Shown in pieces: positions 3,805 through 28,045 of a stretch of DNA of 64,000 bases (positions within the stretch are counted from its first letter, which is position 1; every line of letters starts with the position of its first letter). The notes under the pieces were generated by a model that was given only the letters and a program-made list of their open reading frames with translations, had not been told where the DNA came from and ran no database searches. Source of the DNA: a virus; the IMG/VR virus record IMGVR_UViG_3300022391_000001, positions 1 through 64,000 of that record; one strand, written 5' to 3'. The position numbers and the translations under genes are program-made.

Positions 3805-6093
3805 TCAGCCAACAGACTCAAAGATGCCCTGTTTGCCAATGCGGATGATGAAGCGCTCCACCGTGTCGGCCAGCCGGAGCTTGATCTCAGCGATCATGTC
3901 GCCAGCCGCTCTGGTCGCATTGGTGTTCAACTCTTCATCGAGCTTGATGATCGCGGCGTCCTGGAAGGTTTCCCCGCGCAGAGCCCGCTTGGTGAACTCC
4001 GGCAGAAAGTAGCTCTGGAGCGATGCCAACGCCAACTTTTCCGTGGTCGGATCGTTGATCATGAACACAACCCAGTCAAAGGACTCCTGGAGCACGTGTT
4101 CATAGTAGGACATCTGCTCTCGCTGATGCTTCCATTTCCAGTTGGGGTCTGTGTTCAGGGTCCGGTCGCCCCAGACCACGTAGTTGCCCTTCAGCTTCTT
4201 GACGACAGCAATGCCGACGGGGTTGAGCAGCTCTTCATTGAGCAGCGCGTCCCCGGTCGTCACATCGAGCAACGCCGGAAGCGTCGCGTCCAAACCCGCT
4301 CCCGCCTTGTGATAGCCGTCATAGTCAGCCGCGATCCGAGCCTCACGGCCATGGATCATCCCGGTGTTGACCACCTGCTTGGTCAGCGGCCCTCCGCTCG
4401 GGTCAGCCACGTCACCGTAGGACGGGAATGCCGCCACGGCATAGTCTGAACGCCCGAGGGTGTCATTCACGTAGTCAATCGCTGCTGACTCCGTGGTGAT
4501 GTTGGCGGGGAATTCATACCTGTACTGATGGTTTTTGGCGTCGGCATAGGCAACGCCGGCCTTTTGGACTGCCGTGGCGTTGATGCCCGGCGTCGCAAAC
4601 TTGATCAGCCCATAGTTCTTGCCGAAGGTGCGGTTGAACGGGCTGTTGCCAACGTCCCAAGCCTGCTGGTTGTAGTCGGCATCCACCAGGTCTGCATAGC
4701 CGTCTCTGCCACCCTCCATCTCCAACGGAGCTTCCACCAGGAATTGATCGCCTGGCGCTCCGTCGGTGAGCATCGTGGAGCCGTCGGCGGCTGTGATGCT
4801 GTCGTGGTCGTTGTCGACAATCCTGAACTTGGTGGACTTGGCGTTCACCTTGTCTGGATACACATAGCCCCCGATCAGGGCGTCGGGCTTCAGCGGCTTG
4901 TAGTTCAGCCGCATCGTGTCGCCCGTGGCCAAGACGGTGGCGCCGTTGGACACCGTGAACTCCGGCACCCACTTGATGTCGGCGACAAACGAGACTCCGA
5001 CCGTGCCGACGCCCAGCGCTCCGAATTTGTCGGACACCACGTTGAACGTCGTGGCATCAGCCATCGTAAGGGTCAGCTGCTGGGCAACCATGTCATCGTC
5101 GGTGGCGTCCAGCGCGACCGTCGGATTGGCGCCCGTTGGTGACAACGTGACCGCGAAGTCGTGGATGACGGCGGGCAGCACCGTATCAGACAATCCAGCA
5201 GCGATCAAGCCATAAACGTTGGCCGGTCGCACGCCTGGCACGTGAGCACCCGTCCAAAGATCCACAGCCGTGATCTCGTCATTCCCGGTGTCATCGTTGA
5301 TGACCTTCACCCAGTAGTTGGCGTCGGTCGGATCCGTGTTCAGGTTGGGATACTTCTTGACAAAGTCCCCGTCCACGTACACAGACAGGCTGAACTCGCC
5401 GCTGGGGTCCTCCTCACCATCGCCGATGATGACGCTGAGAGCCTTGTCCTCGTTTTCCAACACCAGGTAGTACCTGTCATCAGCGCCCGACAGACCATCG
5501 TATGTGTCCTTCATGGTCTGGTCGGCGGCGACCGTGATCACCCCGGCGGCGGTGTTGCCCACGATCGGATAACGCACATTGGGCACATCGGGTAGCTCGA
5601 TGTAACCACCCACCCACTCATCCGTCTTGAAGGTGGCCACGCCGGTGTCGAGGGTTGTGTTGGTGAGGTCCGTGGCGACAACGGCCATCTCGCCACTGTA
5701 GCGTTTCTCCTTGCCGCCCCATCTCCCGCCGTTCTTGGCCTTCAGCGTCCCCATCTGGGTGAGCACCGAAGCGTTGCGCGCATACAGCGGCATCTCCGCC
5801 TGCGCTTCATTGCCGTCGGTGACACGGACAAGCAGGAGCCCTCCGGCGCCGTTGGCCAGTGAATAGTAATCAAACGCGGCATCCGGGAGCAAGGACGCGG
5901 AGATGATCCCGCCGCATTTCTTCTCAAACTGCTTCTGGTTGGTGGCTATGATCAACTCACCAACGGGTCCCTTTTCAAGCACGCCCGCATAGCCTGCAAA
6001 GCCAAGTGCTCCGGGGGTGATCCCCTTTTCACCTTCCAACTCAATGATTGCCACGCCCGCACCACGTGTGGGGCCAAATCGCCTTTGAGCCAT
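3805..6093 (-). CDS. Contractile tail sheath protein
   Basis: 762 aa. GVAIIE, KGPVG, LLLVRV, AKNGGRWG, LEMEGGRDG, LNPVGI, VVWGDRTL, ERFIIRI: phage sheath motifs. Confidence 0.95.
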   Translation of the reverse strand: MAQRRFGPTRGAGVAIIELEGEKGITPGALGFAGYAGVLEKGPVGELIIATNQKQFEKKCGGIISASLLPDAAFDYYSLANGAGGLLLVRVTDGNEAQAEMPLYARNASVLTQMGTLKAKNGGRWGGKEKRYSGEMAVVATDLTNTTLDTGVATFKTDEWVGGYIELPDVPNVRYPIVGNTAAGVITVAADQTMKDTYDGLSGADDRYYLVLENEDKALSVIIGDGEEDPSGEFSLSVYVDGDFVKKYPNLNTDPTDANYWVKVINDDTGNDEITAVDLWTGAHVPGVRPANVYGLIAAGLSDTVLPAVIHDFAVTLSPTGANPTVALDATDDDMVAQQLTLTMADATTFNVVSDKFGALGVGTVGVSFVADIKWVPEFTVSNGATVLATGDTMRLNYKPLKPDALIGGYVYPDKVNAKSTKFRIVDNDHDSITAADGSTMLTDGAPGDQFLVEAPLEMEGGRDGYADLVDADYNQQAWDVGNSPFNRTFGKNYGLIKFATPGINATAVQKAGVAYADAKNHQYRYEFPANITTESAAIDYVNDTLGRSDYAVAAFPSYGDVADPSGGPLTKQVVNTGMIHGREARIAADYDGYHKAGAGLDATLPALLDVTTGDALLNEELLNPVGIAVVKKLKGNYVVWGDRTLNTDPNWKWKHQREQMSYYEHVLQESFDWVVFMINDPTTEKLALASLQSYFLPEFTKRALRGETFQDAAIIKLDEELNTNATRAAGDMIAEIKLRLADTVERFIIRIGKQGIFESVG

Positions 6094-19623: not shown

Positions 19624-20562
19624 CTACAGGACGCCTGACCAGAAGCTCTTTTTGACGTTGGTGTCGGTTCCGCCGTCGCCCTCCAAGGACTTGGATGGGC
19701 CGGCGGTCTTCTCGATGACCTCAACGCGCGCCCCAAGACTCTTGGCCACCGTCTGAACTTCATCCAACTTGGTGGTCAGGATCTCCTTGAGTCCTTCAAT
19801 GCTCTTGGTGAGGGCCATCGTCGTGGCCGGTCCATACACGTGGCCGGTCGGCACCGTGGTCTTGGGGCTCTCACCCTGTGGGATGGACTGCATCGACAGC
19901 TCCTTCAGCAGATCCTGAAGCGTCTCCACGGCTGCCTTCAGTGCCTCTTCACGCTTCGGCGTGAATGCCTTGGCCTTCTGGACTCCCATGCTCAACACCT
20001 CCAGGATCTTCTGGACGGATTCATCTGCCGTGTCGTCCATCGACTTCTCTGCTTTCTTGAGCGGCGGCTTGGCCCCGCCACCTGGCTTGAAGGGCATGAA
20101 TGCCTTGTCGAAGCGCTCCATGGCCTTGGTCATCGCTCCGCCCTTGACGCCGCAAGCCTTCAGCTCACTCTCAAACTGCTTGCGCATCTTGGGCCAATCG
20201 CCCTTCTCGGCGTCCATCTTCTCAGCATCTGCCTTCTCGGTGTCCACCTCGGAGGGCTCCGAAGCATTTGCTGCCTTGGCGATGCTTTCGACCAACTGGG
20301 TGACCTGCGCCATGGCCTTTTCCACGGCTTCCGTGCTGGCCACCTCCACGTTGACCTGCTCCGCGCCTTTGGCTGCGGGCTCGTTGGAAACTTGCTCACC
20401 ATCGGGCTGACCCTTGGTGACGTCCTGGATCTCATCGGCCATGTCGCCATCCTCCTGATTCAGTCGCTTGACAACGATGAACTCTTGTTCGTTTGCGGGG
20501 CTGTCCACCAAGGATACTTCCCCCACTTTCAAGTCCACAAATCTCTGCTTCGGTGCGCGCAT
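19624..20562 (-). CDS. Scaffold protein with N-terminal protease strand (EVSLVDSPAN); internal start at 20442
   Basis: N-terminal EVSLVDSPAN, then a helical/acidic body; AGGAGG before the internal ATG 20442; ends FWSGVL. Confidence 0.75.
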   Translation of the reverse strand: MRAPKQRFVDLKVGEVSLVDSPANEQEFIVVKRLNQEDGDMADEIQDVTKGQPDGEQVSNEPAAKGAEQVNVEVASTEAVEKAMAQVTQLVESIAKAANASEPSEVDTEKADAEKMDAEKGDWPKMRKQFESELKACGVKGGAMTKAMERFDKAFMPFKPGGGAKPPLKKAEKSMDDTADESVQKILEVLSMGVQKAKAFTPKREEALKAAVETLQDLLKELSMQSIPQGESPKTTVPTGHVYGPATTMALTKSIEGLKEILTTKLDEVQTVAKSLGARVEVIEKTAGPSKSLEGDGGTDTNVKKSFWSGVL

Positions 20563-20571
20563 CGGTCTTGC

Positions 20572-21282
20572 CTACCTTGGGGCATCATTCGGGGCTGCTA
20601 GCTTGACCACCCGCGCCTTGCCCCCAATGGAGAAACCTTTGATCTGGCCATCCATGACCTGCTTCCAGATCTGGTCTTTCTTGACCCGCACCTTCAGCAC
20701 CCAAGCGCCCTCTTTGACGATCTTGTTGTTGATCGTCAACCCGTGCGGGGCCACAAATGATTGGAGCAGTTCAAAGTCCTGGTTGAACTTCTTGTGCATC
20801 AAGCCCAGCTTGGTCGCCCGGTTGTAGGCGGCCAAAAAATCCTCCGCCGCTTTGCGGATGACCTGGGCATCCATGATGTCGCCCTGAGCATCTGTAACCT
20901 CGGGCTGGAGCACCACGCCGGTGACAGTTTTCTCGGTGGCATCCGCCTTCAGCACAGGCGAATACAGCCGCTTGTCCATCTCAACGGCGTCCTGCTCAGG
21001 CTCGGACTCCGGCTCCAGCTCATCCTCGGGCTCATCCTCGGGCTCGGACTTTGCCACCTTCATCGCCTGCTCAATGACGGCCACCGCCTCAGCGACCTTC
21101 TTGGCCATCATGAAGCGCTGATTCTCGTCATCGTCGCTTGGCTTCGGCTTCACGCCCGAGCCGCCCGGGAGTCCCCGGCGTGGGACCAGCTTGCCGCTGG
21201 CTGCGATGTCGTCGGCGGTGATGGTCTTGGCGACGTGCCGACCCCTCTCAGCGATAGGGTGAGCATTGCGTTTGCGTGTCAC
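20572..21282 (-). CDS. XkdF-like prohead serine protease
   Basis: VTGVVLQPEVTDAQGD, LMH, LLQSFVAP, GAWV, IWKQVMDGQIKGFSIGG. Confidence 0.88.
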   Translation of the reverse strand: MTRKRNAHPIAERGRHVAKTITADDIAASGKLVPRRGLPGGSGVKPKPSDDDENQRFMMAKKVAEAVAVIEQAMKVAKSEPEDEPEDELEPESEPEQDAVEMDKRLYSPVLKADATEKTVTGVVLQPEVTDAQGDIMDAQVIRKAAEDFLAAYNRATKLGLMHKKFNQDFELLQSFVAPHGLTINNKIVKEGAWVLKVRVKKDQIWKQVMDGQIKGFSIGGKARVVKLAAPNDAPR

Positions 21283-21408: not shown

Positions 21409-21663
21409 TCAAGAAACTCTGGCAGTTATGCGGGAGCTGTTGGCAAAGTTGGTCTCAAGCGCTTCCACAAATTTTTTGCCATCCTTGGGGAAGCGCAGGA
21501 CGCCCCCCGGGCCAAAGACACCGTCCTGCTCAATCTGATCTCTGAAGTAGTGAAGCGGAGTCTTCTCGGGCCACGAGCCTACCGCAACGCCGTCCACCAC
21601 CTCATAGGTGGCCAACAGCTGCTCCGCCCCGTCATCTCCGATTGTGTACAGACTCGCCTTCAT
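21409..21663 (-). CDS. Small protein downstream of MuF toxin (candidate immunity 2)
   Basis: 84 aa, MKASLYTIGDDG...DGKKFVEALETNFANSSR. Confidence 0.6.
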   Translation of the reverse strand: MKASLYTIGDDGAEQLLATYEVVDGVAVGSWPEKTPLHYFRDQIEQDGVFGPGGVLRFPKDGKKFVEALETNFANSSRITARVS

Positions 21664-21671
21664 GCTTATCC

Positions 21672-21827
21672 CTATGGCTTCTTGGGCTTGGGCGCTGAAC
21701 GCTTTGGCTTCGGCTCCGGCTGAGGTTTGCCTTGCACGAGCACGGGCTTGCCGTCCGGAGTGTACACACTCCAGTTGGATAGGTCCTGCTCCACAAACCG
21801 CTCGTTTCCTGACTTGAGCTTTGGCAT
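21672..21827 (-). CDS. Small protein downstream of MuF toxin (candidate immunity 1; not in the ORF track)
   Basis: 51 aa MPKLKSGNERFVEQDLSNWSVYTPDGKPVLVQG..., preceded by AGGAGG. Confidence 0.65.
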   Translation of the reverse strand: MPKLKSGNERFVEQDLSNWSVYTPDGKPVLVQGKPQPEPKPKRSAPKPKKP

Positions 21828-21891
21828 CGCGCCCTCCTATTTTCGTATGATCACCTTTGCTTTGTCGATGAAATCCATGCGCGATTGGCAA

Positions 21892-24708
21892 TCAATCGAT
21901 CTCCTCCATGTCCAGCCACACCCTATTTTTATCAAGCTCCTTGGTGACGCCGACAACTCTGAACTTGCTGCCCTTGGCCAAGATCACTTCTTGCTCCGCC
22001 TGAGCAAAGCCGGCTGAATCCTCCACTACGTTTGCGATGTCCACGCCCTTCTTTGTCTTCACTCGCATGACCACATTCATGGTCTTTGGCTTCGCCAAAC
22101 CTCCGGCAAACCCTCGGGCCACCCTCTTGCTCTGCGACCAACTAGCAAGAGCATCTTGTTCAAAGATGTATCCCCTTTGCATCAACTTTTCCACAAATTC
22201 AATGTCGAGCTGGCTGAACCCTCGCCAAACCTCCCCTTCAAATTTGGGCGCTCTCTTCATTGCGGCCACAAGGGCTTTGTGCTTCTCTTGGGCGCCCTTG
22301 GCGACCTTCGCGGCGTCACCTAGCCGATCGAAGTCCCGGATGTCCTCATACCAATCACCTTGCCACGCCCGCAGCGCCGACTTCTCTGAACTGCTCAATC
22401 CCGCTGCCCACTTCTGCTTCTTGTCATCAAACACGCTCGGTGCCGGCTTGGGCGGCGGCTCCGGCGGCGGCACCGGCTTCAGCTCCGGCGGCGGCTTGGG
22501 CGGAGGTGCCGGCTTGGGCTTGGGCGTCGTGGGCTTGGGCGGCACTTTCTTGGGTGACACTTGCGCCACCTTTGGCGGCGTCGGCGCCTTCACCGCCGCT
22601 TTGCTCTTGGCCAGCTTGGCCAACACGTCATCGACTTCGCCCAACGCCGATTTGCTCAGCAACCTAGTTGGAGCCTTGTGGGATGCCTCAATGAAGTTGA
22701 GCACATAGTCGCTCACCCTCTCCACTTTCGAGCCGCCCAGCGAGTGAGTCTGTTGAAAGATGATCTTGGCATTCCCTTGAAGTGCTCGGATCCTGATCAG
22801 AGCGGCCCTTGCGGCTGTTTCTTCAATGCCGTTGGCGTCCAATATGGCCGCCACCCGATTCAAATCCAACCCTTTGACCATAGAGTGCGTGGCGGAGTCC
22901 AATTGGATCAAGTCTTGAAGATTGTGTTCAGCCTTGGCAAACAAGAACCTGCCTGTTGGCTTGAGCGGGAAAGTCAACCCGTTGTCGATGGCGATGAGAT
23001 CTGTTCTCTTGCCCACCGTCTTGTACAGCGCGTTGAGTGTGTGGCGATCGTCATTGGCCGAAATGGCATCCAACAGGAACATCCGCCGCGCCTGAGATTC
23101 TGGGACGTTGGCCAAAGCGTTGCCGATTGTTTTGTTGGCAACCTTGGCTCCGTCCACCCACTTCTGGGCACTTGCCTTGCCGAGCCCGCTCCCGAAGTCG
23201 TGCGACACCGTCGGCGGCGTAAGAGTCTTGCCCCCAAGCTCCCGGTCCAGCTGATAGAACGCCGCCTCACGCTGGTGATAGGTCCCGCCTTTGATGCCGG
23301 TGGACTCCCGGATCAACATCCGCTCGTCATCGGCATACTTCAGGACAACTGTGGTCTTCTTGCCGTCTGGAGCCCGCAGGACAGCCTTGCTCGCTTGGTT
23401 GACACCTTTGCCCAGCTTGGTTGAAGATTCCACGTGCGACGCCAACATCCTTTGGACGATGACGTCATCCGGCGACAACTTGCCCTGAACCGGCGGAGCC
23501 GTGCCCGTCACCGGTGGCTTCGGCGCCGTCGGCGGCATCACCTTTGGCTTCGCGGGCACCGTCGGCGTCGGCGGAGTCATCGGTGTCAGCTGATCATATG
23601 AACCGATCTGCTCATCAACATCCACGTTGCACCGACAACGATAGTGATATGGCGGCAGGCTCATCCCGGCGTCGGCCAGCCCCTTCTCTTGCTTGCCGAT
23701 GGCTCCGCCGCGTTCCGCTCCGGACTTGGGCGCGATCTCCTTGACCTGCTTCAGCGATCTCCATGGGTGCAGTCGCTTGATGTCCTCGGGCTTCTTGGCA
23801 GCTAGCTCTGCGCCCATCTGCTCGGCGCCCCAACGGGTCTCAAACACAGTCCCGTTGAGATGGGCGCAGACGGGACAGATCCGGCTCCCGCCCGGGTTCA
23901 CGATCTTGTATCGGGTGATCCCGATGGACATGAAGCTGCTCATCTGCCCGTGGACGCGCCCGACGGTGGCGGCGTTGGCCACCAGCCCCTCAAAATACTG
24001 GCTGGAAGTGCCCTTGAATCCCGCCGGAGTCTTCACCGTCCCGAGCACAGCCTTCAGCCGCTCGTGCATCAGCTTGCCGGCCACCTTCCGGTCTTTGCCG
24101 GCGGCGATCATCGTGTCTCGGGTGACCTTCCCAATCTCATCGGCGACGTTCTTGGAGTAGTGCGAGCCGATCCAAAATTTCTGGTTCTTTTGGAGGGCTG
24201 CCAGAGCTTCATCGTCCACGACATCAAACGCCGGCAACAACTCCGCCTTCACCGCCGCCTTGGTGACATCCTCCACCGTCGCCAGCTTCGGCACCTTGGT
24301 TCCTGGTGACTCATCCGGCACATCATATCGAAGTTGCCGGGTGATTTGCCGATGTGCCTTCTTATGGCCAAGGATGCGTCCTAGCCTGTAGAACTGCCGC
24401 ATCTCAACCAGGAATATGTCCTCAACATCCTTGGCCCATCCGCCCATGATCTCGTCAACGGCGGATGTGATGTCCTTTGCCGGCTTGAGCTGGGACGCCA
24501 TCTTGGCCGCGATGGTGGCGGCTTGCGCCGCTCGGGCGTCCCATCGAGCTGAGAGCAGGCTCCGCAGGCGCACCTCCGCCCTCGCCATCTGCGACAACTC
24601 CGAGATCCGCAACACCTTGGTGATCATTCGGTCTGATACGCGGAGCCCGAGATACAACTTGCCGGTCCTACGCATGTGAGAGCGCAGGTTGACCACCTCG
24701 TCACTCAC
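21892..24708 (-). CDS. MuF/SPP1 gp7-like minor head protein fused to a HipA/PI3-4K-like kinase and an ADP-ribosyltransferase
   Basis: MuF: RICPVC, PPYHYRCRC. Kinase: VLK, REAAFYQLD, LDAISANDDRH..N, IAIDNG. ART: WRG, ASWS, EQEVIL. Directly after the portal gene. Confidence 0.88.
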   Translation of the reverse strand: MSDEVVNLRSHMRRTGKLYLGLRVSDRMITKVLRISELSQMARAEVRLRSLLSARWDARAAQAATIAAKMASQLKPAKDITSAVDEIMGGWAKDVEDIFLVEMRQFYRLGRILGHKKAHRQITRQLRYDVPDESPGTKVPKLATVEDVTKAAVKAELLPAFDVVDDEALAALQKNQKFWIGSHYSKNVADEIGKVTRDTMIAAGKDRKVAGKLMHERLKAVLGTVKTPAGFKGTSSQYFEGLVANAATVGRVHGQMSSFMSIGITRYKIVNPGGSRICPVCAHLNGTVFETRWGAEQMGAELAAKKPEDIKRLHPWRSLKQVKEIAPKSGAERGGAIGKQEKGLADAGMSLPPYHYRCRCNVDVDEQIGSYDQLTPMTPPTPTVPAKPKVMPPTAPKPPVTGTAPPVQGKLSPDDVIVQRMLASHVESSTKLGKGVNQASKAVLRAPDGKKTTVVLKYADDERMLIRESTGIKGGTYHQREAAFYQLDRELGGKTLTPPTVSHDFGSGLGKASAQKWVDGAKVANKTIGNALANVPESQARRMFLLDAISANDDRHTLNALYKTVGKRTDLIAIDNGLTFPLKPTGRFLFAKAEHNLQDLIQLDSATHSMVKGLDLNRVAAILDANGIEETAARAALIRIRALQGNAKIIFQQTHSLGGSKVERVSDYVLNFIEASHKAPTRLLSKSALGEVDDVLAKLAKSKAAVKAPTPPKVAQVSPKKVPPKPTTPKPKPAPPPKPPPELKPVPPPEPPPKPAPSVFDDKKQKWAAGLSSSEKSALRAWQGDWYEDIRDFDRLGDAAKVAKGAQEKHKALVAAMKRAPKFEGEVWRGFSQLDIEFVEKLMQRGYIFEQDALASWSQSKRVARGFAGGLAKPKTMNVVMRVKTKKGVDIANVVEDSAGFAQAEQEVILAKGSKFRVVGVTKELDKNRVWLDMEEID

Positions 24709-24711
24709 GGG

Positions 24712-26547
24712 TCACTCCTCAATGCCGAGGTCTGGCTCATCCTCGTGTTCGGCCACCGCCGCCGCTTCCCAACGCTTCTCAATCCGCCGGTTCAACTGGA
24801 TGAGGTGGTCCACCAGGTCATCATCCGATTTCTCGATGCCTTGGACCAGCTCCGTGTTGCCGCAATGCGAACACTCCGCTTCAAACACGCCCCCCTCGTC
24901 ATCCTCCGTGAGCGCCTTGAGCGCCGTCACCTGCTGTCCAGGCTCCGATGCATCCGCCTTGTTCTTCACTGCCTCCGCCATCGTTAGGCTGAACGGCACA
25001 TTGGCAGGGAAGTCATCCGGGAAGCCCGGCAGCTCTGCGCTGAGGATGTCCTCCAGCATCTGTCGAGCAATCTCGGGCGTCATCCCGCCGGTCTTCTCGG
25101 CACCCGCCAGGATCTTGACCAGCTGCTGGTTGTCGGTTGTGTTGGGGCTGTTGGATTTGAATTTGTGGTAGATGATCCCCATGTGCGGGAAGATCACCCG
25201 GTTCATCACGGCATCAAATTCATCCCGCTCCGGAGCAAACACCTGCTCATCGGCCAACCGCCGGCTGGACTCCGCCGTCGCTCGGGTGTAGTCATCGGAG
25301 CGGCCAACAAAAATTGGGGGCAAACGGAAGCACCGCCGCACTTGGTCCCGGTTGTTGCCGCTGTAGTTCTGAAACAGCGCGTCCCGGTGTTGATCCTGGG
25401 TGAGCGGCTTGATGTCGACCTTGGTGTGCATCCCGGAGTCTTCACCAGACTCCTCCAGAGTCTCAGCCTCCAGCAGCAGGAATTTGCTGTAATTGTCCGA
25501 GCCCTGAATCTGCGACTCCACAAAGGACTCGATGCGTTGGATCGAGCCCTCCGTGAGCTGGCCGTTGGATACCAGCACGACCATCGACGGGATGTTGTTG
25601 TTGCGGAAAGTGACAAAGTTGATTTCTTCAGCCGCTCTGTCCCCGAAAATGCTCAGCAGGTTGCCGATGTAGCGCGGCAACCCGTATGGGGTCCGAGCTG
25701 AATATTGGGTCAGGTGAATCACCTCGTTGGCTTGCTCTTCAGGCGGCAGGGAGCCTGTGGGATCTTCCAAACCGGTGTTGGCATGATACATCCGAGGGTC
25801 GCCAAATGCCTTGAACCATCGGATCTTGTAGCCACCGAGCGTGGTCAGGTTCCGGAGATGGACTGCTTTGGATTGGGCATACTTCCTGAACCGAGTCCAC
25901 TGCTTGATGGTGGACGCCTTGACACTCCCGTCGATGCGCAGCTCCAAGATGGGCCGATCGATCAGGATTGGTTCAGGGTCCAATCGTCCGAGCCGCATCT
26001 GATAGGACGGGATATGCGTGAACGCCTGGATGCGTCCGGCAGCGTTGCGGATGATCTCGAAATAGCCATTGCCGGTGGCTTCCAAGTCCTTGCGGAGCTT
26101 CCGCCTGAACTCGGTGAAGGACTCCGTGGTGCAGTAGCTGAAGAAGTTTTCCAGCGCCACCCGCTCCGTCCTGACTTTCATCACCAGCTCTTCAGGCGGC
26201 TTTGTCTCGCCGTTGAGCAGCACCCGAGACACATAACGATGGCCGAAACCATCGATGTTGATCTCCATGGCTTCGATGCATTGATTCAATTCAGAGTTGT
26301 GCTCGGGAAGCATCGCCAGGGTCAGCATATCAAACGGCGGCTCAATCGTCATCCCCTTGTGCGATAGCGCATAGAAGGGATCTTCAGGGGTCTTTTGGGA
26401 CATCCCCGGCGCCGCTTTGTCCAATCGCTTGTCGGTCTTCACCTCGATGACCCGAGCCCGGATTTGGCTTAGTGCCTTTTGGTTGGCTTGGGCCCCAGCG
26501 GCGTTGGCGTTGATTTCCAACGGCGTCACTTTGCTCACATCGGCCAC
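24712..26547 (-). CDS. Portal protein (PBSX/HK97-like)
   Basis: DLEATGNGYFEIIR, EVIH, YGLPRY, FRNNNIP, FRLPPIFVG; follows TerL. Confidence 0.92.
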   Translation of the reverse strand: MADVSKVTPLEINANAAGAQANQKALSQIRARVIEVKTDKRLDKAAPGMSQKTPEDPFYALSHKGMTIEPPFDMLTLAMLPEHNSELNQCIEAMEINIDGFGHRYVSRVLLNGETKPPEELVMKVRTERVALENFFSYCTTESFTEFRRKLRKDLEATGNGYFEIIRNAAGRIQAFTHIPSYQMRLGRLDPEPILIDRPILELRIDGSVKASTIKQWTRFRKYAQSKAVHLRNLTTLGGYKIRWFKAFGDPRMYHANTGLEDPTGSLPPEEQANEVIHLTQYSARTPYGLPRYIGNLLSIFGDRAAEEINFVTFRNNNIPSMVVLVSNGQLTEGSIQRIESFVESQIQGSDNYSKFLLLEAETLEESGEDSGMHTKVDIKPLTQDQHRDALFQNYSGNNRDQVRRCFRLPPIFVGRSDDYTRATAESSRRLADEQVFAPERDEFDAVMNRVIFPHMGIIYHKFKSNSPNTTDNQQLVKILAGAEKTGGMTPEIARQMLEDILSAELPGFPDDFPANVPFSLTMAEAVKNKADASEPGQQVTALKALTEDDEGGVFEAECSHCGNTELVQGIEKSDDDLVDHLIQLNRRIEKRWEAAAVAEHEDEPDLGIEE

Positions 26548-26560
26548 AACACGCTCCTAT

Positions 26561-28045
26561 TCAGAGGACACCCGGTTCACGGCTCCGGCGTCGGCGTCGC
26601 TTCCGCATTCTACCTGCCGTCACCGCCAAATCCAAAGCATCAAAGAAGTCCTTGAAGCGATAGTTGGGGAACAACACCAGCTGTTCAATGGCGTGTTGGG
26701 TGCGGGCGCCCTTCTTGAAGAACATCCGTTTGTCCTCAAAGATGGCGGATAACTTCCACGCCCTCGCAATCTTGTCCTTGTCGGTCTTCACCGGTTTGAG
26801 CCGCAGCTCCTTGTCCTCATCCTTGAGGTTTTGGTATTGGGCGTCCTGATAGGCATTGGTCTCAATGGCGCAGCGTATCGGGTCCCAGATGCGGTAGTAA
26901 TCAATGATCTTCTGCGTCTGCGCGTTGAAGCGGAGCTGCGCCTCATACCAGTCCAGCAGGTAATGATTCTTGTCAGGGTCGATGCCCACAACGGCGATGG
27001 CAAAATGGTCGGCGGCATCATCCTGGCTGATGGCGAGGTCCACGCCCATGAACACTCGGAGGGTTGCTGGGATTTGATCCGGCTCGATGACCTGGCAGTC
27101 ATCGTATTGGAACACCTCGCCCTTCATCGCTTCGGTGTCGCACTGGAACTGAGCGTTGAAGATGATCACTCCCGCCTTGGCCCGCTTCTCTTTGAACCAA
27201 CTGGCTGGGTATTTGCTGGGCCAAGGGCTCCGCTCGTGGTCGTCCAATGCCCGAATGACGTTGTAGTGGCCCCGCAGTTCATTGGCCTGTAGATGACCAT
27301 ACAGGTCATCATAGTGATAGCGCGTCCCGAGCCGATGATGCTCCCCTCGATGCGCCACGGTGGCATCCGGCGGCTCCAACGTAGGGTCCAATGACTGGTA
27401 ATACCAGGTGCGAGTCTTGTCTCGCATGTAGGGTGTACGGCTGTTGTCCTCATCCACGAGGTCATCGCTGATCAGCACGTCATAGTGCTTGCCGACCACC
27501 TGCGCTCCAACACCCAGCGTCGTGATCGAGCCCTCCTTGGCTGTGGAAGTCCGAGGCAACACCTCAATCTCGGAGTTGTCCCACTTGCGCGTCTTGCGCG
27601 CATCGAAGTATGGCCCAAACAACTCCGTGAGCTGGTCATTGGATTCAAAGTGCGCCTTGATCTCCTTCAAGAACGCTTCGGCCTGCGTGGAGGTCTTAGA
27701 CGCGATCAGGATCCGGATGTTGGGGTCTTTCAACAGAAGATGGATGGCCTTGGTGATCGTGCAGACTGTGGACTTGCCCGCCCCTCGGAAGGCAAGTTGA
27801 AGATTGTCCGGATGGATGAACTGGAAGCGCATCATGCCGAGGTGGAATGGTTCCACTTGATAGCCCAGCACATAGGTTGCCAGTATATCCACACGATTGT
27901 TCTTCAGGATCTGACGTCTGATCCATTCGGCGCCCATCTGTTTGTAGTGTTCGTACAACTCCAAGAGCTGAGAACGCTCGGCACGCGCCAGCATCCCCGG
28001 GCTCCCTTTCATCATCGGTATGGCAGCGGAATGTTTGGATGGCAC
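26561..28045 (-). CDS. terL: Terminase large subunit
   Basis: Walker A AFRGAGKST, GKHYDVLISDD, GTRYHYDDLYG, nuclease GVDLA...IETNAYQ...DFFDA. Confidence 0.95.
   Translation of the reverse strand: MPSKHSAAIPMMKGSPGMLARAERSQLLELYEHYKQMGAEWIRRQILKNNRVDILATYVLGYQVEPFHLGMMRFQFIHPDNLQLAFRGAGKSTVCTITKAIHLLLKDPNIRILIASKTSTQAEAFLKEIKAHFESNDQLTELFGPYFDARKTRKWDNSEIEVLPRTSTAKEGSITTLGVGAQVVGKHYDVLISDDLVDEDNSRTPYMRDKTRTWYYQSLDPTLEPPDATVAHRGEHHRLGTRYHYDDLYGHLQANELRGHYNVIRALDDHERSPWPSKYPASWFKEKRAKAGVIIFNAQFQCDTEAMKGEVFQYDDCQVIEPDQIPATLRVFMGVDLAISQDDAADHFAIAVVGIDPDKNHYLLDWYEAQLRFNAQTQKIIDYYRIWDPIRCAIETNAYQDAQYQNLKDEDKELRLKPVKTDKDKIARAWKLSAIFEDKRMFFKKGARTQHAIEQLVLFPNYRFKDFFDALDLAVTAGRMRKRRRRRSREPGVL

Follow-up and report, generated by a model that had tools for sequence, protein, structure and literature searches.

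A phage MuF-type head protein with tandem kinase and ADP-ribosyltransferase domains and a candidate cognate small partner for each

The window analysed here is a stretch of 64,000 nucleotides from a phage genome, and it contains a gene for a head protein whose domains follow the order MuF, Pro-rich linker, kinase, second linker and ADP-ribosyltransferase (ART) (Table 1). This ORF starts 3 nt past the portal gene, and an XkdF-type protease, a scaffold and the major capsid protein are encoded downstream; full-length homologues of the protein show 38-52% identity. Two small ORFs, s51 and s84, stand behind it, as an earlier sequence-only reading had claimed; AGGAGG lies 6 nt ahead of the s51 ATG, and s84 begins 8 nt past the s51 stop. 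Both are conserved as protein families across related phages, and are therefore more than chance ORFs.

Table 1. Features of the locus, with positions in the window and the basis of each assignment
Feature	Position	Strand	Basis
Portal protein gene	24712..26547	(-)	PF04860, E 2.5e-20
MuF-kinase-ART gene, 938 aa, GTG start, stop included	21892..24708	(-)	ORF list, translation
SPP1 gp7 / Mu F-type minor head domain, aa 1-385	23554..24708	(-)	TIGR01641, PF04233 (weak), PHROG minor-head families
Pro-rich linker 1, aa 386-420	23449..23553	(-)	Translation; length and sequence vary in alignment A1
PI3/PI4-kinase-superfamily (PI4K type II-like) domain, aa ~421-710	22579..23448	(-)	TIGR03843, PF00454, AF2
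Pro/Lys-rich linker 2, aa 711-752	22453..22578	(-)	Translation; pLDDT ~50 at model end
R-S-ExE mono-ADP-ribosyltransferase domain, aa 753-938	21895..22452	(-)	PF03496, profile matches, catalytic triad
s51, 51-aa ORF, AGGAGG RBS	21672..21827	(-)	Sequence, motif family, HMM, fusion
s84, 84-aa alpha/beta protein	21409..21663	(-)	Family alignment A3, AF2, complex prediction, co-occurrence
XkdF-type prohead serine protease gene	20572..21282	(-)	PF14550, E 1.2e-28

The MuF domain ends C-terminally in PPYHYRCRC (aa 352, nt 23655-23629), the MuF motif named in the earlier reading. Profile matches of the window domain are weak (TIGR01641, E 7e-7; PF04233, E 0.07), the match in the aligned homologues P0007 and P0013 exceeds the Pfam cut-off, and the MuF assignment holds; the domain is common to 80 IMG/VR loci at 24-53% identity. 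A search for related architectures revealed that MuF-kinase fusions are common in metagenomic phages, and other multi-effector MuF proteins were also found, namely MuF-ART-ART, MuF-ART-ART-ART and a rearranged MuF-ART-kinase. The locus had been put forward as an undescribed system; as an architecture it is a variant of a described theme, although the evidence for cognate partners given below is new.

The kinase domain retains the complete catalytic set proposed from the sequence: K457 in VVLK (aa 454-457), REAA (aa 480), D554-R-H-x-x-N559 within DDRH (aa 553, nt 23052) and D575-N-G within IDNG (aa 574, nt 22989). The catalytic residues show no variation across 9-10 homologues and almost none across 75. 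TIGR03843 matches at E 2.6e-9 over 220 of its 253 profile positions, and the AF2 model (pLDDT 84) resembles PI4KII-alpha (Foldseek E 3e-8; VIA Z 19.3 over 245 residues) far more than HipT/HipA and CtkA (Z 10-13). T7 gp0.7, offered earlier as a comparison, does not fit this PI3/PI4-kinase-superfamily (PI4K type II-like) assignment, and a kinase of that type is ruled out.

The substrate is most likely protein Ser/Thr. It may be observed that the closest structural relatives of the domain are lipid kinases, and a non-protein substrate is possible. We regard as rather unlikely a lipid or small-molecule kinase acting, for instance, on envelope lipids or on a nucleotide or second-messenger signal at DNA entry. 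Type II PI 4-kinases are indeed the nearest structures and PF00454, on the catalytic loop, is the only Pfam match; however, phosphatidylinositol is absent from most bacteria, many bacterial members of the same superfamily, HipA/HipT, CtkA and CotH among them, are protein kinases, and the Ser that a protein partner is predicted to present (see below) suggests a protein-accepting cleft.

The ART domain likewise carries the motifs of the R-S-E class where they had been read, with R829 in VWRG (aa 827, nt 22230), S-W-S 856-858 in ASWS (aa 855) and E905-Q-E907 in EQEV (aa 905, nt 21996). PF03496 matches the isolated domain with 30.4 bits against a cut-off of 23.4, and a profile of six relatives matches Vis (E 3e-15), Vip2 (4e-11), CdtA and iota Ia. 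The nine related ART domains all retain the catalytic triad.

The earlier proposal of one small gene product per domain was followed up in 112 non-redundant related phage loci, and genetic linkage supports it. A homologue of s84 lies directly behind 21 of 23 close kinase copies and is present in none of the 74 kinase-free loci of this set (Fisher p 3e-14, uncorrected for phylogeny, such co-occurrence statistics being inflated by shared ancestry). In a first scan the homologue was found immediately 3' in 10/10 kinase-bearing loci, and the linkage persists where the kinase is detached from this MuF clade.

Similarly, s51 consists of one copy of a ~20-residue motif followed by a Pro/Lys-rich tail, and this motif occurs in 5/5 ART loci as compared with 1/107 others in the same 112 loci. 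It is present behind every ART-bearing MuF gene of this clade (the window, L005, L008, L009, L014 and L038), and also behind the MuF gene of L108, whose ART is truncated. ART domains and motif copies match in number, 1:1 in four loci, 2:2 in L008 and 3:3 in L009; the linkage as a whole covers 6-7 related loci, three of which built the search HMM. Additionally, s84 and s51 are fused into a single ORF in two lineages, P0159 (= L014/L163) and P0166. The window has the nested order MuF-KIN-[ART/s51]-s84, and L014 has MuF-ART-[KIN/s84]::s51, the small proteins being fused where the domain order is rearranged; such nested orders are the result expected from cassette insertion of effector-plus-partner units. 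Taken at the sequence level, these patterns suggest that s51 is the cognate partner of the ART, with one short linear motif per ART domain.

For s84 structural predictions point in the same direction. Its AF2 model (pLDDT 92) finds HipS as best match (7ab3_B, Z 4.4, 71 aligned residues, rmsd 3.4) and Legionella HipS as second (7vkb_B, Z 3.9); among 48,161 chains, HipS, Legionella HipS and HipA residues 8-108 and 2-106 take ranks 1, 2, 3 and 5, although the similarity is weak, with Z below 5 in the range that the tool labels common arrangements. An independent Atlas model also indicates Couple_hipA. When s84 was modelled with the kinase (aa 1-300 of A2), the predicted complex scored 0.80 (runs 0.84, 0.80 and 0.78) against 0.00 for the best of three controls; 58 of 80 solved complexes score as high, compared with 2 of 110 mismatched pairs. 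At least 83% of contacts are shared among the runs, and partner pLDDT is at least 83; the input alignments were shallow, with 10 rows. The predicted interface, at the active site, joins residues 21-30, K48, E53, 144-150 and 165-168 of the kinase segment to residues 73-82 of s84, and Ser76 of s84, within an N-S-S motif and invariant in 10 homologues (alignment A3), sits next to both catalytic Asp residues, that of the D-R-H loop and that of D-N-G. The score could partly stem from learned HipS-HipT-like complexes. Together with the co-occurrence, the model suggests that s84 is the cognate partner of the kinase domain.

An invariant Ser at a catalytic centre is compatible with a substrate equally well as with an inhibitor. 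That s84 is the physiological substrate or a phosphorylation-controlled timer, with phospho-Ser76 altering its function or freeing it, would agree with the invariance of this residue and its predicted position; pseudosubstrate-type inhibitors, however, may retain a Ser, and the fusion of the kinase to a packaged head protein would be left unexplained, so that we hold this reading to be quite improbable. Somewhat less unlikely, but still doubtful, is that s84 and s51 act as assembly factors or cofactors and not as inhibitors: s84 as a separately encoded N-terminal subdomain of a split HipA-like kinase, serving folding, activity or substrate choice, and s51 as an ART chaperone or packaging adaptor, or both as co-packaged subunits. 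The models of s84 and of the kinase tile HipA residues 8-108 and 148-433, the latter being the HipA core alignable to the kinase, and in full-length HipA the N-subdomain belongs to the active enzyme. Strict co-occurrence and equal copy numbers would suit any obligate partner, inhibitor or not, and the apparent virulence of the phage weakens the classical immunity rationale. Nevertheless, the predicted pose of s84 occludes the ATP-binding Gly-rich loop, catalytic Lys, D-R-H and D-N-G and does not resemble scaffolding, the sole characterised free-standing HipS is an antitoxin (PMC10627512), and small ORFs behind MuF toxins match a toxin-immunity pattern (PMC5576092).

The modular system of effectors plus cognate partners is real, and its genes and models suggest a double effector delivered by the virion, each of its domains having a built-in inhibitor of its own. 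The protein would be a minor head protein of the SPP1 gp7 / Mu F type that lies inside the capsid in association with the portal, employed by the phage as a carrier to which two enzymatic effectors are attached via flexible Pro-rich linkers: a PI4K-type-II-like kinase of the PI3/PI4-kinase superfamily and an arginine-type (R-S-ExE) mono-ADP-ribosyltransferase of the Alt/VIP2/Vis kind, both presumably toxic. The cognate partners would bind one effector each, with HipS-like s84 docking on the Gly-rich loop, catalytic Lys, D-R-H loop and D-N-G and thereby occluding the kinase active site. Their most likely role would be to silence the effectors while the producing cell expresses the late genes and assembles heads. 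On packaging or ejection of the head protein, which is expected from what is known of the gp7, Mu F and T4 Alt families, the partners would stay behind, and the enzymes could then gain activity in the next host, modifying its proteins, possibly including defence proteins, at the start of infection. We consider this explanation, a MuF carrier of two effectors with two partners silencing them until the next host, moderately probable as a whole.

The lifestyle of the phage bears on a further reading, that of a classical MuF polymorphic toxin in competition between lysogens and non-lysogens, with prophage-expressed small ORFs as kin immunity genes. The architecture and the downstream small ORFs do fit the MuF toxin definition (PMC5576092), and a PT-HINT pretoxin domain is present in one homologue of the kinase. 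However, the record, 105 kb long, is a complete genome that carries direct terminal repeats and in which no tyrosine or serine recombinase was found, and the phage is thus probably virulent; no close prophage copies were found among 185,579 species genomes searched, and s51 and s84 form part of the late head operon and lack a convincing promoter separate from it. Lysogen competition is hence very improbable. For a virulent phage near lysis, immunity proteins are less obviously needed than for a lysogen.

Among known systems, MuF polymorphic toxins share the N-terminal MuF head domain, a variable C-terminal enzymatic domain and, usually, a small putative immunity ORF immediately 3' (Jamet et al. 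2017, PMC5576092); their delivery alongside injected DNA was proposed there, and ARTs make up 14% of the toxin set. That paper, however, has no occurrence of kinases, and describes one toxin domain per protein, exclusively in temperate phages, whereas the window combines two different tandem effectors and two partner genes in a probably virulent 105-kb phage without integrase. Polyvalent proteins (Iyer et al. 2017, PMC5512222; 2022, PMC9503650) similarly join, within a single polypeptide packaged into the head, several enzymatic domains aimed at the host, with MuF as a hub domain and ARTs and kinases as recurrent modules. MuF fusions to Alt/VIP2 ARTs and zeta-toxin-like kinases are noted there, and head packaging and injection of MuF-fused effectors, including the Alt/VIP2 ARTs, are predicted; cognate small partners, copy-number matching and partner fusion are not described in the passages covered. 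Kinase-PolyVal (PF18762), the kinase clade of those proteins, has no match in this genome, the kinase here being PI4KII-like.

HipBST and HipBA (PMC6581861, PMC10627512, PMC9325769) also pair a PI3/4-kinase-like kinase with a partner of ~100 aa that has the HipA N-subdomain-1 fold and touches both the Gly-rich loop and the active site; experiments have established HipS as an antitoxin, which obstructs the active site of HipT at the Gly-rich loop (PMC10627512). Unlike these, the window pair shows no sequence similarity to them and no HipA_C Pfam match, its kinase comes closer in structure to PI4KII (Z 19.3) than to HipT or HipA (Z 10-12) and forms part of a virion protein, the kinase is encoded ahead of its partner in a reversed gene order, a HipB HTH component is missing, and s84 resembles HipS weakly (Z 4.4). 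T4 Alt, an ART of the same R-S-E clade, is packaged in the phage head, enters the cell together with the DNA and modifies the host RNA polymerase among other proteins, according to PMC5512222 and established background; it differs in having no MuF fusion, known dedicated inhibitor gene or partner kinase domain. Vis of Vibrio splendidus, Vip2, CdtA and iota Ia have in common with the window ART the R, S-x-S and ExE catalytic motifs that characterise Arg-specific enzymes, Vis and Vip2 being the best sequence-profile matches at low identity; they are secreted bacterial toxins with eukaryotic targets such as actin, whereas the target of the window ART is presumably bacterial. Among predicted viral structures, the top matches of the kinase model (E 1e-8 to 1e-6) are a 1340-aa 'ADP-ribosyltransferase' of Mycobacterium phage Onyinye (A0A6B9L6W7) and 'head morphogenesis' proteins of uncultured Caudovirales (1020-1220 aa), whose annotations imply an ART or MuF domain in a kinase-fold polypeptide; tblastn gave no sequence-level match. 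The theme of MuF polymorphic toxins and polyvalent proteins is known, and the window adds a variant of it, a tandem kinase and ART on a MuF protein, each with its own small partner gene.

The virus record is complete (105,469 bp, direct terminal repeats), and the gene of 938 residues lies in its late head module on the minus strand (see table), where the genes for the scaffold and the major capsid protein follow that of the protease. A slot directly after the portal gene is canonical for a MuF minor head protein. The N-terminal domain (aa 1-385) is a divergent member of the SPP1 gp7 / Mu F type, which TIGR01641 (E 7e-7, 29.6 bits against a cut-off of 39.65) and PF04233 (E 0.07-0.43) match weakly; the cut-off of PF04233 is passed by aligned full-length homologues (P0007, 41.3 bits; P0013, 64.5 bits), and PHROG minor-head families match the window protein at E 4e-6. 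A motif of the P-x-H-x-x-C-R-C type lies at aa 352-360, with H355, R357, C358 and R359 invariant in nine homologues. At 19624-21282 the XkdF-type protease and the scaffold are encoded by separate ORFs, the second of which opens with a conserved E-V-S-L-V-D-S-P-A-N-type strand; this two-ORF layout was seen in every relative inspected (L001, L003, L005, L008, L014, L054), so it is a conserved trait rather than a defect of this genome.

Genes of the head module around the MuF-kinase-ART gene (KIN, kinase; ART, ADP-ribosyltransferase; s51 and s84, the two small downstream ORFs)
Feature	Position	Strand	Remark
Terminase large subunit	26561-28045	minus	late head module
Portal	24712-26547	minus	PF04860; 3 nt upstream of the 938-aa gene
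MuF-KIN-ART gene, 938 aa	21892-24708	minus	ORF
s51	21672-21827	minus	AGGAGG 6 nt before ATG
s84	21409-21663	minus	start 8 nt past s51 stop
XkdF-type protease	20572-21282	minus	PF14550

Proline-rich linkers separate the MuF, kinase and ART parts of the protein. The kinase domain (aa ~421-710) is matched by TIGR03843, the SCO1664 family, at E 2.6e-9 (36.8 bits, profile positions 10-230 of 253), which makes it a distant relative only, as the equivalog cut-off is 172.4 bits. PF00454 aligns with its catalytic loop at 17.3 bits against a cut-off of 27.1, which is passed by the homologues P0004 (28.0 bits), P0011 (31.8 bits) and P0013 (32.4 bits), and a profile of the domain detected PI4K2A/B in the PDB at 1e-7. 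An AlphaFold2 model built from a 10-sequence alignment (pLDDT 84, pTM 0.84) found its best structural matches in human type II PI 4-kinases, with a Foldseek E of 3e-8 for PI4KII-alpha and, in VIA-align, Z 19.3 over 245 residues at an rmsd of 3.8. Next in rank were Fam20, CtkA, Legionella HipT, CotH, E. coli HipT and HipA (Z 10-14), the Hip-type values of 11.6 (7wcf), 10.7 (HipT) and 10.3 (HipA) lying below that of PI4KII. The kinase had no HipA_C match in Pfam, and HipA_2 was detected in 2 of 75 relatives. K457, D554-R-H-x-x-N559 and D575-N-G do not vary among close homologues and are kept almost without exception in 75 distant ones. Judged by the kinase superfamily, Ser/Thr of a protein is a more likely substrate than a phosphoinositide, although a lipid or a small molecule could also be acted upon. 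Two other assignments were rejected: similarity to the T7 gp0.7 kinase was absent from every search, and Kinase-PolyVal (PF18762) gave no match at E<=1 across the 105-kb genome and was absent from the Pfam hits of the 75 relatives.

The C-terminal ART domain (aa 753-938) is recognised by PF03496 at 24.0 bits in the whole protein and 30.4 bits as an isolated domain (cut-off 23.4). A profile from six related ARTs detected Vis (3e-15), Vip2 (4e-11), CdtA and iota Ia in the PDB; when the ART region by itself was used in a word-based search, the query was the sole return. The catalytic residues are R829 (W-R-G), S-W-S at 856-858 and E905-Q-E907, and the R, S-x-S and E-x-E motifs are kept in nine related ART domains, one of which has Q-x-E. 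The E-x-E motif suggests arginine as the target residue. The sequence-only reading had proposed a kinase fold with an intact catalytic set, an ART of the R-S-E class and two small ORFs behind them, the first preceded by AGGAGG; every motif it named lies where it was placed, the model and the invariant residues uphold the kinase, PF03496 and the catalytic motifs confirm the ART class, and both ORFs hold up.

A motif of about 20 residues in s51 recurs in the small ORFs behind all other ART-bearing MuF genes, those of the loci L005, L008, L009, L038, L014 and L108 (the last with a truncated ART). The number of motif copies follows the number of ART domains: four genes with a single ART have one copy each, MuF-ART-ART (L008) is followed by a small ORF with two, and MuF-ART-ART-ART (L009) by one with three. 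The tandem ARTs of L008 (1463-3906) and L009 (5549-8673) have diverged to 31-32% identity with one another, and all of them carry R, S-W-S/T and E-x-E except one with Q-x-E. A 160-aa ORF with a TTG start (21409-21891) was rejected as the true gene because all homologues begin at the s84 methionine and the conserved motif is read in the frame of s51. Neither s51 nor s84 had a Pfam, PHROG or NCBIfam match or a usable feature match in the Atlas, and a promoter/terminator scan around the small genes gave a signal at chance level.

The second small gene is linked to the kinase. In every kinase-bearing locus of the MuF clade, the gene is directly followed by an ORF of 76-98 aa homologous to s84, and a second scan, seeded with the kinase, recovered the same linkage, also in loci without this MuF clade. 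Among 112 non-redundant loci, an s84 match was present at 21 of the 23 close kinases and at none of the 74 kinase-free loci (Fisher 3e-14, with shared ancestry left uncorrected); at one of the two close kinases lacking it, the locus sequence ends 51 nt past the gene. In L096 (IMGVR_UViG_3300018422_000001, ~3888-4058) the s84 homologue lies just past the kinase gene on the opposite strand, the sole such case seen. Judged from this linkage and from the copy number of the motif, s84 and s51 are the apparent cognate partners of the kinase and the ART, respectively. In the MuF-ART-KIN locus L014, a single ORF of 109 aa (P0159) combines a homologue of s84 with the s51 motif. A second, different s84::s51 fused protein, P0166, comes from an NCBI contig, and the gene upstream of it is predicted to encode a kinase as well as an ART. 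The gene orders are nested, KIN-[ART|s51]-s84 in the window and ART-[KIN|s84]::s51 in L014, which is the pattern expected if, as we infer, each effector was inserted together with its partner as one cassette, in the manner of polymorphic toxin systems.

The predicted structure of s84 (pLDDT 92) is a small alpha/beta protein. Foldseek against the PDB returned nothing below E 0.5 for this model, and the s84 sequence profile gave only spurious TPR and nanobody matches there. In an exhaustive structural alignment covering 48,161 PDB representatives, E. coli HipS ranked first (Z 4.4, 71 residues, rmsd 3.4), Legionella HipS second, and the HipA N-terminal subdomain, in two structures, third and fifth; these Z values, 3.4-4.4, are low. 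Couple_hipA was also indicated for s84 by an independent Atlas model, and the remainder of HipA, its core (residues 148-433), is aligned by the kinase model. The HipT kinase is counteracted by its antitoxin HipS, at the Gly-rich loop and the active site (PMC10627512).

Modelling of the kinase together with s84, which the sequence-only reading had proposed, gave a complex score of 0.80, whereas the best of three controls scored 0.00. Among solved complexes, 58 out of 80 attain this mark, as do 2 mismatched pairs in 110, a calibration that is only rough for this pair because our own alignments were used. At least 83% of the contacts agreed between runs, with a partner pLDDT of at least 83. On the kinase side, the predicted interface involves the Gly-rich loop (residues 21-30), the catalytic Lys, the D-R-H-x-x-N loop and D-N-G; on the side of s84, it involves the conserved N-S-S strand, with the invariant Ser76 placed against the catalytic aspartates. 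The score might reflect HipS-HipT-like complexes learned by the predictor; however, identity to these complexes is just ~10%. The prediction supports binding of s84 to the kinase domain, and its geometry fits an inhibitor that occludes the active site, possibly as a pseudosubstrate. A serine held against the catalytic aspartates is equally allowed if s84 is a substrate of the kinase.

The same MuF clade is present in 80 IMG/VR loci at 24-53% identity, many of them on contigs of ~100 kb. Most of its genes end just past the MuF motif (~360 aa) and others bear varied extensions, so that the C-termini across the clade range from none to one to three ARTs, kinase, GNAT, ART-PolyVal and unknown regions. 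GNAT acetyltransferase domains and an ART-PolyVal-like domain are seen as C-terminal cargo in L044 (3865-4647), L057 (7099-7776) and L049 (7066-7548), and extensions of 300-360 aa without a Pfam match are many (e.g. L011, L027, L028, L034, L036, L050, L052, L066 and L074). Inteins (Intein_splicing, Hint) break several MuF or MuF-kinase genes, namely L054 (5851-8880), L056 (3810-6548, equal to L058), P0087 and P0090, the intein of P0090 having an endonuclease-like insert (MTES_1575/DUF559).

A HMMER search with the kinase domain covering 1.84 billion cluster representatives yielded 555 clusters at E<=1e-3, of which 106 reach E<=1e-10. Among 75 representatives of 400-1000 aa, PF00454 was matched by 57 (E<=1e-3), PF04233 by 31 and the PT-HINT pretoxin domain by one; a Pfam-detectable ART was found in none. 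Other contexts include a P-loop or methyltransferase domain with MuF and kinase, and a portal-MuF-kinase fusion (P0057, 1411 aa), in which the portal and the MuF part both have matches in Mu-like phages of Pseudomonas and Ralstonia. Taken together, the cluster counts, the PF04233 matches and the varied contexts mark MuF-kinase fusions as a large family. Our literature search found no published description of it, and kinases are not mentioned in the MuF-toxin paper (PMC5576092). Giant polyvalent-type proteins with 2-4 kinase copies each were also noted, listed with P0042 (3184 aa), P0067 (2892 aa), P0065 (1967 aa) and P0057. The combined MuF, kinase and ART architecture, for which the sequence-only reading had suggested a search, was found twice only, as MuF-KIN-ART in the window and as MuF-ART-KIN in P0002/L014/L163.

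Tblastn against 50,697 GenBank phage records returned nothing useful for the whole protein, the kinase domain, the proteins P0095 and P0166 or a Nocardia SCO1664-like ORF, and identified no cultured close relative in these records. In a search of predicted viral structures (BFVD), the top match of the kinase model was A0A6B9L6W7 of Mycobacterium phage Onyinye (1340 aa, annotated 'ADP-ribosyltransferase'), and several uncultured 'head morphogenesis' proteins also matched. Further viral matches were A0A4D6E245 (Gordonia phage GodonK, 1479 aa) and the proteins L7TJZ0 and R4T6E8 of haloarchaeal tailed viruses. From these structural matches, similar kinase/ART combinations probably exist in cultured actinophages, and kinase cargo, with matches in a mycobacteriophage and in haloarchaeal tailed viruses, may have a far wider distribution than searches by sequence suggest. 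A scan of genome contigs for the kinase revealed distant relatives only (Nocardia, Chlamydiae, Kiritimatiellae and other MAGs). One cellular ORF in Actinophytocola algeriensis (L150, NZ_JACHJQ010000003.1), which is cut off by the locus edge and is longer than 1816 aa, has a distant kinase copy near aa 1333 and may be a chromosomal polymorphic toxin or polyvalent protein of this actinobacterium.

The phage is probably virulent, since tyrosine and serine recombinases (PF00589, PF00239) are absent from its 105-kb genome and no close prophage copies were found in 185,579 species genomes. SPP1 gp7 and Mu F are portal-bound inside the capsid and T4 Alt is a packaged, injected ART. By analogy with these proteins and from what is known of the family (PMC5512222, PMC5576092, PMC9503650), the head protein is most likely an effector carrier, which would bring the kinase and the arginine-type ART into the next host along with the DNA. 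Candidate targets there would be aaRS, EF-Tu and RNAP. Proteins injected with phage DNA act ahead of any phage gene expression, which makes them prime candidates for taking over the host and for pre-emptive counter-defence; to our knowledge, few apart from T4 Alt have been characterised. In a probably virulent phage, the partners would guard the virocell during late expression rather than lysogens.

A bolder proposal, to which we give limited credence, is an 'effector-antidote code' on phage head proteins, in which each effector grafted onto MuF would have its own small inhibitor module, and the modules would be concatenated, repeated or fused in the stoichiometry of the effectors. The kinase and s84 would then form a virion-delivered counterpart of HipT-HipS, unrecognised until now and widespread (hundreds of sequence clusters), that stops a core host process such as translation seconds after the DNA enters; a second target would be modified by the ART. 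The locus and its relatives define a large, uncharacterised PI4KII-like kinase family on head proteins (the 555 clusters), a conserved HipS-like protein that is predicted to block the active site of this kinase, and a short peptide motif whose copy number follows the ART domain count. If the partners are inhibitors, they would serve as ready-made tools for blocking two enzyme families specifically and for probing their structures, and would explain how toxic cargo is made without poisoning the phage's own factory cell. MuF 'toxins' would, moreover, extend beyond temperate phages.

Compared with known systems, the locus has the layout of MuF polymorphic toxins (Jamet 2017), a MuF domain with a C-terminal toxin-type domain and small ORFs of <150 aa directly downstream. 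These toxins are reported as exclusive to temperate phages and prophages (PMC5576092), from which the window phage, being probably virulent, departs. In HipBST, a hipB-hipS-hipT operon includes an HTH autoregulator, whereas here the kinase precedes its partner, and both sit among the late head genes of the phage with no HTH gene; HipS contacts the Gly-rich loop and the active site, and s84 is predicted to do so, its match to the HipS fold being weak. The kinase itself is structurally nearer to PI4KII (Z 19.3) than to HipA/HipT (Z 10-12), and it does not belong to the Kinase-PolyVal family (Iyer 2017), having no PF18762 match. The sequence-only reading of a double effector with one antidote gene per domain largely stands for the domains and the partner linkage, but not as a categorically new system: it is a variant of MuF polymorphic toxins and polyvalent proteins. 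Apparently new are the family of PI4KII-like kinase effectors together with the HipS-like protein that accompanies it, a peptide motif that is tied to ARTs and present in as many copies as there are ART domains, the fusion of the two partners, and the finding of such a system in a probably virulent phage.
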